A stretch of 64,000 nucleotides of DNA from Mustelus asterias (lineage: Eukaryota), in NCBI RefSeq assembly GCF_964213995.1, contig NC_135804.1, forward strand, positions 89,280,001 to 89,344,000, read 5' to 3'. Below the pieces are notes generated by a model. That model made no database searches. It had not been told where the DNA came from and worked only from the letters and a program-made list of their open reading frames with translations. Below are positions 24,896 through 47,870 of the stretch, in pieces; the stretch's first letter is position 1; each line of letters starts with the position of its first letter. Position numbers and translations under genes: made by a program.

Positions 24896-25402
24896 GAAGC
24901 AGTAAGGCCTGACACTTCTGTGTTTTTGCCCTTTACCAGTGTGTAATCAACTGTGGTTACAAGAAGCTCCCTCCATCAGTTGCACTTAATACTGCAAAAC
25001 TGCCTGGCTTCCTTTATCACAATGTCATCACAATGTGGGTGTCTGATACTGGTGTCAGGATATAGGAGCTCATAAGATGAGCAGGGGAGGCAATGGCCCA
25101 GTGGTATTATTGCTAGACTATTGATCCAGAAACTCAGTTCATGTTATGGGGACCCGGGTTCGATAACATGAACCTGGGTTAACAGATGGGGGAATTTGAA
25201 TTCAATAAAAAAATCTGGAATTAAGAGTCTACTGGTGACCATGAAATTATTGTCGACTATTGTCAGAAAAACCCATCTGTTTCACTATTGGCCTTTCGGG
25301 AAGGAAATCTGCCGCCCTTGCCTGGTCTGGCATACATGTGAACACAGTAAGAAGTCTCACAACACCAGGTTAAAGTCCAACAGGTTTATTTGGTAGCAAA
25401 AG

Positions 25403-25439
25403 TCACAAGCTTTTGGAGTGCTGCTCCTTCATCAGGTGA
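25403..25439 (-). ncRNA. Minimal hammerhead ribozyme, probably inactive
   Basis: Reverse complement UCAC CUGAUGA A GGAGCAGCACUCC AAAA GCUU GUGA; the GAAA box is mutated to AAAA. Confidence 0.7.
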
Positions 25440-25653
25440 GTGGGATTTCAGTTCACAAACAGGGCATATAAAGACACAAACTCAATTTACAAAATAATGG
25501 TTGGAATGCGAGTCTTTACAGGTAATCAAGTCTTAAAGGTACAGCCAATGTGAGTGGAGAGAGGGTTAAGCACAGGTTAAAGCGATGTGTATTGTCTCCA
25601 GCCAGGACAGTTAGTGAGATTTTGCAAGCCCAGACAAGTTGTGGGGGTTACAG

Positions 25654-28020
25654 CTAGTGTGACATGAACCCAAGATCCCGGTTAAGGCCGTTCTCATGTG
25701 TGCGGAACTTGGCTATCAGTCTCTGCTCAGCGATTCTGCGTTGTCGTGTGTCGTGAAGGCCACCTTGGAAAACGCTTACCCGAAGATCAGAGGCTGAATG
25801 CCCGTGACCGCTGAAGTGTTCCCCAGCAGGAAGAGAACACTCTTGCCTGGTGATTGTCGAGCGGTGTTCATCCATTGTCGTAGCATCTGCATGGTCTCCC
25901 CGATGTACCATGCCTCGGGCCATCCTTTCCTGCAGCGTATCAGGTAGACAATGTTGGCTGAGTTGCAAGTGTATGTACCGTGTACCTGGTGGATGGTGTT
26001 CTCACGTGAGATAATGGCATCCATGTCGATGATCCGGCACGTCTTGCAGAGGTTGCTGTGGCAGGGTTGTGTGGTGTCGTGGTCACTGTTCTCCTGAAGG
26101 CTGGGTAGTTTGCTGCGGACAATGGTCTGTTTGAGGTTGTGCAGTTGTTTGAAGGCAAGAAGTGGGGGTGTGGGGATGGCCTTGGCGAGATGTTCGTCTC
26201 CATCGATGACATGTTGAAGGCTCTGGAGAAGATGTCGTAGCTTCTCCGCTCCGGGGAGGTACTGGACGACGAAGGGTACTCTGTCTGCCATTTTCCGTGT
26301 TTGTCTTCTGAGGAGGTTGGTGCGGGTTTTTCGCTGTGGCGCGTTGGAACTGTCGATCGATGAGTCGAGCGCCATATACTGTTCTTATGAGGGCATCTTT
26401 CAGCGTCTGGAGGTGTCCGTTGCGATCCTCCTCATCTGAGCAGGTCCTGTGTATACGGAGGGCTTGTCCGTAGGGGATGGCTTCTTTAACGTGTTTCGGG
26501 TGGAAGCTGGAGAAGTGGAGCATCGTGAGGTTATCCGTGGGCTTGCGGTACAGTGAAGTGCTGAGGTGACCGTCCCTGATGGAGATGTGTGTGTCCAAGA
26601 ATGCAACCAATTCCGGAGAGTAGTCCATGGTGAGTCTGATGGTGGGATGAAACATGTTGATGTCATCATATAGTTGTTTCAGTGATTGTTCACCATAAGT
26701 CCAAAGGAAGAAAATGCCATTGATGCATCCAGTGCACAGCATCAGCCGAAGGTCCTGTGCGGCGAAGAGGCCCCGCCCGAACCCGTGCACGAAGATGCCG
26801 GCACATTGAGGTGCGAACTTGGTCCCCATGGCTGCCCCGCGTATCCGGACGAAGAACCGGCAGCTGAAGGTAAAGACACCGCGGTCCAGAATGAAGCGGA
26901 TGAGCCGCAAAACTGCATCCGGAGACCGGCAGCCGCCGGCGCCGAGCACTGAGGCAGCCGCAGCAACGCCATCGTCGCGGGGGATGCCAGTGCAGAGTGC
27001 TGAGACACCCACCACAATGAGGAGTGCTCCCGGCCCAACCGCTCCATGTGCGCTGGGGCTCTGCAGGAAGTCCGCAGCACCGCGACAAAAGCCGGGGGCC
27101 CCCCGCACAATGGGCCCCAGGATGCCCCCGACGCAGCCGGCGAGGCTCCCGCACAGGGTTCCACCGCCCAACACGAAAGGACAGCCGGGCGTGTCTGCCC
27201 CATGCATCTTTGGGAGGCAGCAGAGATCCCCAACGCAGGGAGTACATGGGACGAGAGCACGGAGGGTGCTCAGAAGGTCCGGATCAAATGTCCCGACCAG
27301 TCTGCTGAGCCGACAGGCGCGCTCCCCGGTCAGATTCGCGGGCAACTGTTTGTAGTGTTCCCCGTTGTTCAGCCGTCGGCACACGTCCCCGCAGCAATCT
27401 GTTCTGTTCAGTATGGCGATGGCCCCTCCTTCGTCTGCTGGTTTGATGACAATGTTGCGGTTGGTCTTGAGAGCGCGGATGGCGTTGCGTTGTGCTTGGG
27501 TGATGTTCGGGGCTGTCTTGTGAGTGCGGCTGATGAATCTGGCATTGACACACCTCCTGACGGCTTGGGCATACATGTCAAGTCGAGGGCAGCGGCCTTC
27601 TGGAGGAGTCCAATTCAGTTGCTGCAGTGCAGATCTCTCTGTCGGCTGTTCTGGTTCATTGGCTGTCTCATTGTGTTCGTTGTTGGCCTCTTGGGGTTTG
27701 TGGAAGAACTCCCGCAGCCTCATTCACCTGATGAATTCCTCTGTGTCCGCTGAGAGACAGATGGGATCTATTTTGGTGGTGGGGCAGAAATTGAGCCCTC
27801 GGCTGAGAACTTTGATTTCATCTGGTTGAAGTGTGTAGTCCGACAAGTTGACAATGGACTTCCCTGCAGTGGTACTGTTTTCTCCTGTGGTACCGGGGGA
27901 GTCTTGGTTGCTGCTGGTCGTGATGCCGAGTTTCTCAAGTTTCCTGTTCTTGGTGTGCATGTAGATGGCATAGTTCCTTTGGCCTGTCTGCTTGGCAGAG
28001 TTTCTCAGCTGGTCTGCGTC
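25654..28020 (-). pseudogene. Disrupted Penelope RT/GIY-YIG polyprotein
   Basis: Split over ORFs 27724-27960, 26083-27723, 25776-26375 and 25654-25968 by a stop and frameshifts. The catalytic YIDD position reads CING. Confidence 0.88.
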
Positions 28021-28400
28021 CTGAGCGCAATTTGGAGGGCATTCGGCCTCTGATCTTCGGGTAAGCGTTCGCCAAGGTGACCTTCACGACACACGACAAC
28101 GCAGAGTCACTGAGCAGAGACTGATCGCCAAGTTCCAAACACATGAAGACGGCCTTAACCAGGATCTTGGGTTCATGTCACACTACCTGTAACGCCCACG
28201 ACTTGTCTGGGCTTGCAAAATCTCACTAACTGTCCTGGCTGGAGACAATACACATCTCTTTAACCTGTGCTTAACCCTCTCTCCACTCACATTGTCTGTA
28301 CCTTTAAGACTTGATTACTTGTAAAGACTCGCATTCCAACCATTATTTTGTAAATTGAGTTTGTGTCTTTATATGCCCTGTTTGTGAACTGAAATCCCAC

Positions 28401-28437
28401 TCACCTGACGAAGGGGCAGCGCTCCGAAAGCTAGTGT
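28401..28437 (+). ncRNA. Minimal type I hammerhead ribozyme (Penelope terminal repeat), core intact
   Basis: CAC CUGACGA A GGGGC-agc-GCUCC GAAA GCU A GUG: stem I CAC/GUG, 5-bp stem II, palindromic AGCU stem III, cleavage triplet CUA. Confidence 0.8.
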
Positions 28438-29564
28438 GGCTTTTGCTACCAAATAAACCTGTTGGACTTTAACCTGGTGTTGTGAGACTTCTTACTGTGT
28501 TTACCCCAGTCCAACGCCGGCATCTCCACATCATGTCTACATGTGAATCCAGAGCCACAGCAATGTGGTTGACTCTCGACTGCCCTTGGGCAACTAGGTG
28601 GCCAGGTCCCACAAATGAATAAAGAACATAAATCCAGGGAGCAGGTCCTGGTATTTGCATCTGCATTCAAACATATTCTATTCAGAATTTAAAAGAATAG
28701 TTTCAACCTGTAATGTCAACATAAAAACGATTGACCTGATCTGCCTCAGCCCGGAAAAATGTGCCTCACTGTGCATGAAATGGAGACTGGTAATAAATGT
28801 CTTGCCAATTTGGGTGAAATTTCACTGAACATTATGCATGTCACAAATACTTTCAGGTGCAGTAATACACAGCTGGATTTTCACCACAGAGACAGACAGT
28901 TGGGTCTGCCTTTAGGTCAGAAAGCTGCCTCCAGTGAGAAACTGATTAAAGATAAGATTTTCGATACGATTTTCGAGGAAGTGGTTGAGCTCTTAATTGG
29001 TTCGGAGGCAGGTTCCCTACGCACTCCAAGTCGGGGAGGTGGCGGAAGAGACAGAAATGGGGATGGTTCAGATGAAGTGTGGGATTCGTTCAGACACCCC
29101 ATAGCAGCTTTCACTGAGGCTGAGGGAGTGATCCACAGCTGGTGCCAAAGCCTTCCGCAGTACCATAGGGAAATGAAATGCCACAGGAGATCTGGAAGCC
29201 TGGCACCAAGGCCAGGACAAACCCCCGCCAATCTGGATCCAATACTGGAGGCCTTGAGGGAGAGGAAGGCATTCACCTCATCATGTGGCAGGAGTACGTC
29301 CCTGTTCAGCATCATCCCCCTCCTGCCTCCTCTTCCTCCTCCTCTCTCACCTTCTGCCCCTGTTCAATGCATTCCAGGGCCTCATTGTACTCAAGGTCCA
29401 CCCTCAGGAAGGCCATGTTATGGAGAGCATAGCAGACCACCACAATGAGTGAGAGAGCCTTGCAGAAAGGTATTGGGAATCACCAAACTGGTCCAGTCAC
29501 TAGAAATGATTCTTCAGAAGCCTGAAGGCCGATGAATGGTTTTGCAACTGAGCGGGTGACTCTG

Positions 29565-37593: not shown

Positions 37594-38787
37594 CTTTAAA
37601 AACTTTGATAGTGGATCTCTGCAATTCTGATGACAGAACTCCAGCTATGAACAACAGAATGGAAAATTTCAAGCTTTGAACTGATAAAATAGGTCATGAT
37701 CAGAATTGCTTTTGGTTCCCCATTACCACTGGAAATCCAGTTCAACCATTTTAATATTACAATATTTCTTTGTTTTTAGGAAGCCACTTGTACTGTAGAT
37801 TTAGTATCATTGCCTTTTGTGTTTAAGTTTTAAATCTTTTGTCCTATACTTATTAACAGATTTGATGAGTCTAATTCATATCTATGTGGATGATGAAGAA
37901 CTGTATTGATTTTGAACTTGAACCAAGATCCTCTCAGTCATGTGAAAAACTTGTTAAGCGAGTTACTATCTATTCAATTTTTAAAAAATTATTTTGCAGA
38001 CATCCACAGGTAAAATTAGTGAATTACCCAGGACATGAACAAATTAATCAGGCTCAGCCAAGCATAGAAACAATGCTCCTATGAGATCCCGCATCACTGC
38101 AGACTGACCTCATTTCCACAGTACACTCAATACAAGGACAAACTCATTATAAATTACACTTCATAGGAGGTTTGCATTTTATCAGAAGCCCTTCATTCCA
38201 GCTTTGAGATTCACTGCTTAAACATGAAGCAATAAAATTCAGCCTCACTGTTGTTTTCTCATAGCTGCTGCAATGGCTGTCGAGGGGTTTAATCTCTTTT
38301 AGGCTAAGGCCTGGAAATCTGTCTGTAGTTTGCCTTTCTATCGCAGGTCAGAAGTTCTTCATCCACCATATTGGTAAATATATCCAGGGCCCGCACCTGA
38401 AGCAGGTGTGATACCCTCTTCATATGCAAATGTAGGCCTCACGCCTCGCTGCTTGAGGTTCCATGCTTAAAACTAAGTTGCCTGATAGCAGTTGGCATCA
38501 TACTCACTGTATTCAAGAAAACCAGTCCTACCTTTTGCCCAAATAGGAGTGTTTAAAGGGGCAATTGCAAACAAAGTGCTCAAAAGAATCTGCCTGAAAA
38601 TGGAATCAAGAGGTGCAGGTGTACTCCTCCAAGCTCATCCCTAATATCCCAAGTTGTAGCCCGTTATTCCTCACTGACTCCTTCCCATTCCATCCTCAAT
38701 GGCCTGCACCGACAGGCGGAGTTAGGCATTATGTGAATAATGCATATAATAATCCTCAGCTGCATGAAAACCCTCTCGTGAAACTAG

Positions 38788-39877
38788 GGCTGCGATTCTC
38801 CCAAAAGTGCTGAATTGGTGGGAAAACTGTTCTAGATCCCGACTGTTTTGTCAGTTCAGCTTCTCATCTGAATCTGCCCACTCTGTGCACTGCAGAGTTC
38901 ACAATCGTGAATCTCATTTAAAATCCAGGCGGGGGGGGCCTATTCGTGCCGGAGTCTGACAGTTCTGGAACTCTGCACATGCGCAGTGATCCCCATCTGT
39001 CAGTCTCCCCATTTGCTGGCCAGCTCGATCACTGGCCTGCCCTGCCCACCGCAGTTCTGCCCCTCCAGCCCCCCACCCCTTAGCCCAATCGCAGCCCCCA
39101 CAGCAATTCCTGGCCCAGCCCTGAACCGCCCCCACCGTCCCGGAGCGCCCCGATGCACAGCCCACCCCGCCTCCAGTGGTGATCCCCCCACCCTCCTCAC
39201 CCTGGCAGACCCCCCCCCCCGCTGACCCCCCCCGGGTCAGACCCCCCAAGAGGCACGCCCCCCCCCCCCAATTGCTGCCCTCCCTCCGTCCCAGACAGAT
39301 CCTGTCTGCAAAGTGGCAGTGGAAACCCCCACGCCCACCAATTTCCCCAGTCTCTGCCCACAATAGACTCTGCCCCCTTGGCACTGCCCAATGTCTGGTG
39401 GGCAGTGCCAAGGTTCCCCTTAGGCATGGGCACTTTGCTCCTTGGACAGTGCCGGGGGGCACAGGCTGGCATTGCCAGGGTGCCCATGCCCAGGGGTCAC
39501 CACCCCCACCGCCCGACCCCTTGGGGGGGCCCCCTTTCATTCCAGCGGGGTGTCCCGCTACTTCCCCGAATGTGGGGAGCTAGTCTGAACCCTGCCAGAA
39601 TGAAGTACTCTTGGCAGGGTGGAAGATTCGATTGGGACCTGAAAGTTCCCAACAATTAACTGATAAACATATTTAAAATACAGTTTAAAAAGATTCAAAT
39701 TACTTACCTGCCTTCCTGCCAGTCTCCAGTCTGGTCTGACCGGCTACTGTTCACCAGCTCTGGGAGATGTGCATGCATTCCCGGCACATGCGTAAATCCC
39801 GGTTCAAGGCCGGCGACGCGCATCTTCCACCGCTACCCGCCAGAAAAGTTGCGGGTGGCAATGGGAAAACCGCGGCC
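38788..39877 (+). mobile_element. GC-rich ~1.1-kb Harbinger-type MITE, TAG TSD
   Basis: GGCTGCGATTCTCCC...GGGAAAACCGCGGCC flanked by TAG/TAG; homologous to 46774-47870. Confidence 0.75.
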
Positions 39878-45771: not shown

Positions 45772-46773
45772 AGTTGTCTGACTTGACTTGGTTGCTTCAA
45801 ACTAGTTTATTAACATTATGTACAAGATAGATTACAGAATGGATATACCTCCCTTCATCATGATACATACTTTTCCTTTAAGAGAAATCCAGGCTTTTGT
45901 TAATTAATGCAGGCTAGCTTAAAATGGTGCTAGCCTTGTATGAACCTGTGTGCCTGAGCAAGGTGTGAAGCCACTCCGCAACACATTTAACGTTGGGCCG
46001 CATCACAGTGAATGGGCATGGACAGGCAGGGAAGGCATGGGCATAATGAGGCACATGGGAGGATTGGAAGGGTAAATTGCATCTATTTCAATGCAAGGAG
46101 CCTGTCTGGCAAGGCAGATGAACATAGAGCATTAATCAACGCGTGGAAATATAATATTGTTGCAATCACTGAGACATGTTTGAAAGAAGCACAGGGCTCA
46201 GCGTTCCAGGGTACAGAAATTTCAGGCATGAAGGGGGGATAGAAGAGAGGAGGGGGAATTCCATCATTGATAACAGAGACCATCACTGCAGAATGAGGGA
46301 GGATGTCTCAGAAACCTCTTCAATTGAAGCCAAATGGGTAGAGCTTAGAAATAATAAGGGATGATCACTTTGCTGGGATTGTACCAAGGTCTCCCAACAG
46401 TCAGAGGGAGATAGAGGAGCAAATGTGTCGGCAAGTCACTGAGACATGAGAGGAATAGGGTTATAGTAGTAGGGGATTTCAACTTTGCCAATATTAACTA
46501 GAATCGCTTTAGTGTGGAAGGATTAGATGGGGTGGAATTTTTAAAGTGCATCTAGGAGAGCTTTTTGTGCTGGTACATGGATAGTCCGACCATGGATGGG
46601 ACAGTGTTAAACCTAGTCCGAGGGAATGAAGCGGCAAGTGATCGAAGTGTCAGTAAGGGAGCATTTTGGGGATTTTCCAGCTGCACTCACCCCAAGGCAG
46701 GAAAATCCCACTGCATAACTCTGTAAGTTTCAAAGTCATTATGGAAAGGGATAAGGATAGTCCAGAAATCAAG

Positions 46774-47870
46774 GGGGCAATTCTCCCAAAAGTGCTGAAT
46801 TGGTGGGAAAACTGTTCTAGATCACAACAGTTTTTTCAAGGCAACTTCACATTCGAATCTCCCCACTCTGTGCAATGCAGAGGTCACAATCATGAATATC
46901 ATTATAAAACCCGGGAGGCGAGGACTATTCGCGCCGGAGTCTGACAGCTCCAGAACTCTGTGCATGCGCAGTGGTCCCGACCTGGCAGTCTCCCTGTTTG
47001 CTTACCAGCTCAATCGCTGGCCAGCCCGGGACCCCCACAGTGCTGCCCCCACAGCCCGATTGCGACCCCTACGACAATTCCCGGGCCAGCCCTGACAACG
47101 CCCGCTCCGGAGCATCCTGATGTCCAGCCCACCTCCCCCCCACCACCCCAGCAGTGGCGATTCCCCCTACACCCCTCACCCCAGCAAACCCCACCTACTG
47201 ACTCCCTCTGGGTCAGACCCCCTGGGAGGCACCCCCGGCAGACTACCACCCACCCCCAGCCCGCCCCAATCGCTGCCCTCCCTCTAGCCCAGATTGATCC
47301 CCATGCAGCGGGACTCCCCCCCCCGCCACCCCATCAATCGCCCCCAGACCCCGCCCACAATGGGCCCTGCCCTTTTGGCACCGCCTGATGCCCAGTGGGC
47401 TGTGCCAAAGTGCCCCCTATGCATGGGCACTTTGCCCCTTGGGCAGTGCTAGAGGGCACAGGCTGGCACTGCCAGGGTGCTAATGCCCGGGGGGACCACC
47501 CCCCGTCACTCGACCCCCTTGGGGGGGGGCCCCGATTCCTCCCCCTCCTTCACTCTGGCGGGGTCTCCTGCTCGTTCCCCAAACGTGGGGAGCTACTCTA
47601 AACCCCGCCAGAATGAAGTACTCCTGGCGGGGTATTTCAGGTATTTTAATCACATCTAAAATACATTTAAAATATATGTTAAACATATTCAAATGGCTTA
47701 CCTCACATCCCGCCAGATTTCTGCGCATTCCCGGTGGCGCCATTTTCTTCCGGTTGGGAGATGCGCACGGGTCATAAAAGCTCGCGGGGAACTCGCGAAA
47801 TGGCCGACATGTGCATCTCCCGACCGACCTACCAGAAAAGTTGCGGGTCGCAATGGGAGAATCGGGCCCC
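46774..47870 (+). mobile_element. GC-rich ~1.1-kb Harbinger-type MITE
   Basis: GGGGCAATTCTCCC...GGGAGAATCGGGCCCC; interrupts the CR1; homologous to 38788-39877. Confidence 0.75.

Follow-up and report, generated by a model that had tools for sequence, protein, structure and literature searches.

Clusters of A-to-G change of the type left by ADAR enzymes and fixed by reverse transcription are known from retroviruses: as relayed in the available portions of two reviews (PMC8586724, PMC12925331), they occur in RAV-1 (Felder 1994), in avian leukosis virus (Hajjar and Linial 1995) and, in culture, in HTLV-2 and STLV-3, and the available text of PMC8025556 describes three such proviruses of bovine leukaemia virus (BLV). 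Here we analyse a 64-kb stretch of the Mustelus asterias genome (NC_135804.1, positions 89,280,001-89,344,000, on contig C4 of the 3.68-Gb genome; hereafter the window), which holds a 5'-truncated copy of a Penelope-like retroelement whose reverse transcriptase (RT) coding region carries a bounded block of A-to-G changes on one strand; very probably, this block records ADAR hyper-editing of the template RNA before its reverse transcription into the germline. It resembles the edited retroviral DNA in that the changes are clustered sense-strand A>G, there affecting nearly 50% of adenines in an inverted-repeat region, and would likewise have been fixed by reverse transcription. The retroviral cases, as far as these sources go, concern exogenous viruses in somatic or cultured cells and are confined to U3 or to short windows (about 70 bp in BLV), whereas the present block covers 680 nt of a Penelope-like RT, is inherited through the germline and is likely older than a species split.

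Within genomes, a counterpart is provided by the APOBEC 'DNA editing' fossils of endogenous long terminal repeat (LTR) retrotransposons (Knisbacher and Levanon, PMC4866542; Zaranek 2010, PMC2873906; both as their accessible text presents them), which resemble our block in being clusters of deamination biased to one strand, each in a single copy of a germline retroelement and recognised by comparison with its family. They consist of G>A changes from deamination of cDNA, whereas the A>G changes here come from the RNA strand; the screen of PMC4866542, by the same accessible text, covered LTR elements only and selected G-to-A over A-to-G, and would therefore miss an A>G class. As for the enzymes, the available part of Eggington 2011 (PMC3113232) gives a 5' neighbour preference of U>A>C>G for human ADAR1 and ADAR2, a 3' preference of G>C~A>U for ADAR1, and editing of 50-60% of adenines in long double-stranded RNA (dsRNA); our block shares the 5' order, the weak 3' effect and the level of such promiscuous editing, and differs from it in being a fossil in DNA. 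Canonical endonuclease-bearing (EN+) Penelope-like elements of the Neptune/Nematis type (Craig 2021, PMC8557442; Frangieh 2024, PMC11167929) have one open reading frame (ORF) with RT followed by a GIY-YIG endonuclease, a defining CX2-5CxxC linker between the two, a 5'-truncated copy in inverse orientation at the 5' end and a 30-40-bp tail at one end, all of which find likenesses in the family studied here; the portions of these two papers that are available make no mention of an ADAR footprint. A review, in its available part, judges it logical, if undetermined, that ADAR editing plays a part in the mutation of retrotransposons, there of Alu (PMC4982230), and a study of selection on G alleles (PMC7186786, likewise in part) has no bearing on the A-to-G block. 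Our literature search, whose coverage left most subscription papers and supplements outside, so that earlier mentions may exist, returned no paper that describes an ADAR-type block in the germline for Penelope-like or non-LTR elements.

A one-strand A-to-G block in the reverse transcriptase region

A sequence-only reading of the window had proposed a fossil of hyper-editing at 26717-27432, with a large A>G excess on the coding strand to be expected inside the block and background levels outside. Alignment of the copy with its family, taking the commonest letter of each column as the yardstick (29 copies first, then 84), bears this out. With 84 copies, A>G changes on the coding strand are present at 109/193 sites inside the maximum-likelihood limits of 26717-27395 and at 14/578 outside, and the same block has T>C at 4/133 sites, two A>C and three A>T; G>A stands at 7/125 inside and 25/414 outside, so that no APOBEC-type cluster of sense G>A is present. 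With 29 copies and the limits 26717-27432, the corresponding A>G counts are 110/203 and 19/568 (Fisher p=8e-56), and T>C inside is 7/140 (p=4e-24 against A>G). Of the 110 edited columns, 107 have A in 27-29 of the 29 other copies, and the closest relatives found, L067 and L071 (94.7-95.4% identical outside the block), still show 114-117 A>G differences inside it. Because the relatives keep A at the edited sites and T>C shows no excess, the block is confirmed as a real one-strand feature, neither a subfamily trait nor a product of GC-biased conversion; a consensus with G at these sites and strand symmetry, the two outcomes that would have spoken otherwise, were both absent.

The composition that had first drawn attention to the block was exactly reproduced (T on the plus strand 16/180 at 27061-27240 vs 54/180 at 27481-27660). 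Alignment with the intact family copy L003 contains every RT motif change that had been named, and the codon counts agree on the near-total loss of tyrosine (1 in 239 codons, against 9 in L003) and on the survival of many aspartate codons (12, against 16). The block edges are sharp as described, but the upstream one lies at 27395 by maximum likelihood, 27432 being a lone outlier; the frame is indeed undisrupted within the block, but this is uninformative, as A>G makes neither stop codons nor indels.

The chance of change depends on the 5' neighbour: with 84 copies, edited adenines number 18/20 after U, 35/42 after A, 41/80 after C and 15/46 after G (chi-square p=1e-6 for the maximum-likelihood block; p=4e-6 for 26717-27432 with 29 copies), an effect that is lacking outside the block (p=0.86). 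The predicted avoidance of 5' G is likewise present (15/49 against 95/149, p=6e-5; 26717-27432, 29 copies). On the 3' side, G is highest and U lowest (G 21/32, A 28/43, C 45/79, U 15/34), without significance (p=0.28). Altogether, 56-59% of the adenines in 26717-27395 are edited. One-strand transitions, the 5' order U>A>C>G with a weak 3' effect, and change at 50-60% of A within a bounded stretch jointly match the footprint of ADAR. Since the change reads as A>G on the RNA strand, whereas a cDNA strand deaminated in its place would show T>C, the edited strand would have been the RNA.

The block is real DNA and not an assembly error. It is carried by short-read contigs from four runs of three samples (these are contigs, not raw reads; all samples come from one study and are thus not fully independent, and one may be the source of the assembly), so DNA data without the block, the outcome that had been named as fatal, did not turn up. 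Contigs X1 (581 nt) and X2 (599 nt), both from one sample, show no difference to the block; those of X3 (151, 252 and 166 nt) show 0-1, and that of X4 (342 nt) shows 2. Depth over the block is 21.7 in X1, against 16.7 and 28.5 in the flank contigs, and 38.1 in X2, against 21.6 and 16.8, and thus near single-copy depth, while unedited parts of the element reach a summed depth of 10^4-10^6.

The edits appear to be as old as the copy itself, since the CpGs that they created have decayed like native ones: C is T at 5/41 edit-made CpGs, compared with 13/673 non-CpG C (p=0.002) and 17/130 native CpGs (p=1.0). In run X5, from organism B, positions 26878-27251 are covered to a depth of 4.07 by a contig of 373 nt, which shows 31 differences and one gap; flank contigs of this run have depths of 3.91 and 3.8 (10/526 and 29/641 differences). 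Over the span of the 373-nt contig, 77-92 differences separate the window copy from unedited copies, and no fewer than 44 from copies simulated as independently edited (0/10,000 at 31 or fewer). On these counts, the likeliest reading of the X5 contig is that it represents the orthologous edited block. Among the contigs listed for runs X9, X10 and X11, none crosses the block at 90% likeness, a limited listing that carries no weight as a sign of absence. With edit-made CpGs decayed like native ones and organism B likely holding the same block, the germline age that had been claimed is borne out, and the edited block likely predates a species split.

Palindromic family copies and the rarity of editing

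At up to three mismatches, a 26-nt stretch of L003 has 5,932 matches in the genome (arms and duplications counted), and its edited counterpart matches only the window copy (simulated sensitivity 0.79 for an independently edited copy), as does a second 26-nt edited pattern (simulated sensitivity 0.41); the frequency of the editing event at the tested site is thus about 1 in 5,900. A scan of 111 other loci (190 segments, 288 kb; some loci mutual duplicates; 5 self loci and 5 duplicates dropped; segments with fewer than 150 scored sites skipped) found none with more than 5 A>G or more than 4 T>C per 25 sites, compared with a maximum of 20/25 edited A sites for the window copy; the locus samples are top BLAST hits and hence biased to well-preserved copies. 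No other A>G cluster emerged from 565 kb compared all-against-all, and with the block as a DNA query, none of the 40 candidates scored of 2,815 exceeded 79%, the copy itself aside. Similar or shared blocks, for which a scan of the family copies had been proposed, were found in none of these scans of the 111 loci, the 565 kb and the two patterns. Re-amplification of the edited copy, with edits shared among descendants, is rejected, as both edited patterns match only the window copy and the block query otherwise stays at or below 79% among the candidates scored. The rarity fits scarce substrate and strong exclusion of hairpin RNAs alike.

Besides this copy, the 64-kb window contains no RT-region family piece, and so no antisense RT partner, and intact L003 has no long internal self-complement. 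An inverted family piece is present in 64/111 other loci and pairs within the block span in 7/111 (flanks of 1.5 kb only). Among the first 100 exact matches listed of the 5,932-match set, we picked by eye at least five head-to-head pairs lying within 2.5 kb, and all five were confirmed as inverted repeats. In L128, a near-full-length sense copy faces an arm truncated at window-equivalent 27353, the arms being 99.9% identical over 2.1 kb; L122 has a similar layout, with its arm truncated at window-equivalent 27579. Such RT-spanning palindromes, together with own arms of the window copy that lack an edit cluster (24 differences over 466 sites; A>G 1/112 per arm, T>C 1-2/131), agree with the earlier suggestion of a dsRNA partner from outside the copy's own arms.

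Head-to-head palindromes were observed at L122-L125 and L128-L131 (G000 C7, C1, C672 and C26), with arms of 0.6-2.2 kb that are 93-99.9% identical; those of L124 and L130 are nearly spacerless. If transcribed, these palindromes should form very long dsRNA, and their stability suffices for them to persist in the assembly. In L123 (G000:C1:47987500-47997499), one arm carries at about 5886-6640 a roughly 750-bp insertion, at window-equivalent 26685-26689; its position some 30 nt from the downstream edge of the block is probably a coincidence. None of the nine extended regions examined is the source locus.

Origin of the block

The high probability that we give to ADAR editing of the template RNA rests on the one-strand A>G change, the 5' U>A>C>G context and an editing level equal to the 50-60% of long dsRNA. 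At the source locus, an antisense arm would have stood beside a near-full-length sense copy and been transcribed with it, the arm pairing with the RT region at about 26717-27395. The upstream edge of the block would then be the truncation point of the arm, and the downstream edge the 5' end of the transcript or the end of an internal fragment; a transcript starting inside a palindrome arm would indeed pair over a bounded RT stretch, as seen. ADAR would have deaminated about 56-59% of A in the duplex, near the known ceiling, and the element's RT would have read inosine as G during target-primed insertion. Two catalytic Asp codons being edited, the RT protein was presumably translated from a different RNA, or else before editing took place; and as both arms are unedited, the inverted 5' arm likely joined the element at integration. 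The new CpGs would then likely have been methylated and decayed. The core claim of the sequence-only reading, that the template RNA of a Penelope-like RT was edited before retrotransposition, is thus well supported by strand, neighbour context, target-site duplication and germline age, alongside the block itself, its presence in DNA and the existence of palindromic copies. Its further suggestion of ADAR restricting a retroelement is not supported: the edited RNA did insert, the copy is 5'-truncated and so dead regardless, and the event is found about once in 5,900.

Several points weigh against this account. The footprint is one read in DNA, and neither a second edited copy nor another A>G cluster came out of the scans described above. 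Neither the source locus itself nor the partner strand turned up among the loci examined, and L128 and L122, which are only 87-89% identical to the window copy, show the architecture and not the source. The 32 matches of the host genome to A_deamin (PF02137), on at least 7 contigs, count in favour of the account but are not assigned among ADAR1, ADAR2, ADAD and ADAT1. In one cell-culture study, as far as its available text goes, ADAR1 inhibits L1 independently of editing, and no editing was detected in L1 RNA (PMC5224506). Finally, the X5 contig, which is unbridged to the flank and judged without letters from difference counts, is 8.3% diverged, against 1.9% and 4.5% for its flanks; the high CpG density of the stretch that it covers (8.8 vs 0.4-1.8 per 100 nt) may explain this extra divergence.

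ADAR might also have edited an RNA of which only a cDNA patch entered the present copy, through an RT template switch during insertion or through later conversion of an existing copy. We hold this to be improbable: the sharp block edges would suit it, as would nearest copies that differ by region (though all lie within a few percent), but non-edit divergence is alike in block and flanks, CpG decay aside, the edit-made CpGs have decayed as far as native ones, which leaves no later date, and the window offers no antisense RT piece, nor the element a long internal self-complement. A burst of polymerase error might be sought in the WA motif of DNA polymerase eta, acting in a repair patch, or in RT misinsertion under a skewed deoxynucleotide pool. 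The 5' A/T enrichment fits the former motif too, and the change could come from one copying event; an excess of 109 transitions over 5 transversions at A, a density of 56%, a graded difference of C over G on the 5' side, and an abrupt start and stop mid-way in one copied strand nevertheless make such an origin extremely unlikely.

Adenines could instead have been deaminated in DNA after insertion, either in an R-loop with antisense RNA or by a TpA-type DNA hypermutator. The available part of PMC12925331 describes ADARs editing the DNA of DNA:RNA hybrids at mismatches in model substrates, and 5'-T sites are here the most edited; against this, a single strand is affected (T>C 4/133), 51% of CA and 33% of GA sites are edited, so that the change is not TpA-specific, and the rest of the copy and the 111 other loci are untouched, all of which renders the idea very unlikely. 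Ordinary causes (a G-rich subfamily, GC-biased conversion, assembly or sequencing error) have nothing found in their favour and retain a negligible probability; we reject them on the A of other copies at these columns, the best other block match of 79%, the lack of T>C excess and the agreeing short-read contigs of three samples. ADAR editing of the template RNA before insertion remains the reading that we adopt.

The element, its setting and what the fossil means

Coordinates of the block and of the element are collected in Table 1. A target-site duplication, 5' truncation and presence in genomic DNA mark the copy as a retrotransposed insertion. Its lesions, all outside the edited block, are a stop codon in frame near 27725, the loss of 12 nt at 27621 and two frameshifts, at 26326 and at 25876; it has 75% protein identity to the intact L003 ORF, which begins about 277 nt upstream of 28034, so that the 5' end of the window copy is short by that length including the likely start codon.

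Table 1. Features of the Penelope-like copy in the window (positions counted from the first letter of the window)
Feature	Position	Strand	Remarks
A-to-G hyper-mutated block in RT coding region	26717..27395	-	maximum-likelihood limits (112/191 sites); lone further A>G at 27432
RT motif-A aspartate codon, now Gly via A>G at 27008	27007..27009	-	
RT motif C, family RYIDD changed to GCING	26716..26730	-	three A>G and one G>A at CpG
5'-truncated Penelope-like copy (RT, Cys linker, GIY-YIG)	25338..28034	-	87-89% identity to full-length family copies
3' arm of the element's own inverted repeat	25338..25803	-	unedited
Inverted 5' pseudo-LTR: antisense copy of the element 3' end, plus roughly 30-nt tail at this end only	28037..28537	+	inverted repeat I1; without edit cluster
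Target-site duplication, left	25333..25342	+	10 bp; overlaps element end by 5 nt
Target-site duplication, right	28538..28547	+	10 bp

Intact natural copies of the family have one ORF of more than 900 codons; that of L003 is 912 aa long. Pfam RVT_1 matches L003 and L009 (E 1e-9) and not the frame of the window copy; a Pfam search of four window frames gave nothing useful, and a PDB sequence search with L003 gave no match. A GIY-YIG-like motif can be read by eye in the L003 C-terminus, with no Pfam GIY-YIG match, and a CX4CxxC linker lies between RT and endonuclease in both L003 and the window copy. Pseudo-LTRs, tandem and inverted partial copies and a one-ended tail are all present in the family. 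On account of the single RT and GIY-YIG-like ORF, the linker, the tandem and inverted partial copies and the one-ended tail, we place the element provisionally among the EN+ Penelope-like elements of the Neptune/Nematis type. Within the pseudo-LTR, 28405..28429 (+) contains what we take, by eye, to be a hammerhead-like core, unconfirmed by Rfam, which has no match there at E<=1.

Uninterrupted ORFs of more than 900 codons are kept in L003, L004, L009, L018, L022, L024, L026, L029 and L030, and because several copies keep them, the family is recently or still active. At L126 (G000:C14:4437000-4446999), at least three full-length copies follow one another in tandem at intervals of about 3 kb, and each edge of the array carries further partial ones. 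L070 and L081-L085 (C351 and C6:39.1-39.95 Mb), six copies that are almost identical and share both truncation and inverted arm, point to segmental duplication and not to new insertions. At the target duplication, the element seems to split a short high-copy repeat (25150-25342 and 28538-28700) that has no second copy in the window and that may be a short interspersed element of the kind found in cartilaginous fish. Elsewhere in the window lie two copies, 8 kb apart, of a GC-rich (about 70%), T-poor repeat (38780-39529 and 46765-47526), in which no one-type mismatch cluster was flagged, and an inverted repeat at 19393-20039 with 98-nt arms that are 99% complementary and 451 nt apart, possibly a young miniature inverted-repeat transposable element.

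A germline ADAR-type block in a Penelope-like element extends the known reverse-transcribed A>G clusters of exogenous retroviruses. As a clean and old germline fossil, it indicates that germline retroelement RNA is met by an ADAR-type enzyme and remains able to insert; what it demonstrates is contact and not defence, and its weight is that of one copy. It suggests two tests of Penelope mechanics, namely whether mobilisation occurs in trans and whether the inverted pseudo-LTRs are made at integration. Tentatively, and with less than even confidence, we suggest that ADAR-edited retroelement RNAs in the germline form an overlooked fossil class, the A-to-G counterpart of APOBEC-edited endogenous retroviruses and now including Penelope-like elements. 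Hairpin RNAs would then be almost wholly barred from retrotransposition, since about a tenth of RT-bearing copies of the family lie in palindromes, yet only about 1 in 5,900 is scarred; the window copy would have escaped, mobilised in trans, and would preserve an ancient germline ADAR specificity. Such fossils offer a simple genome-wide screen, and a readout of ADAR preferences in species without RNA data.
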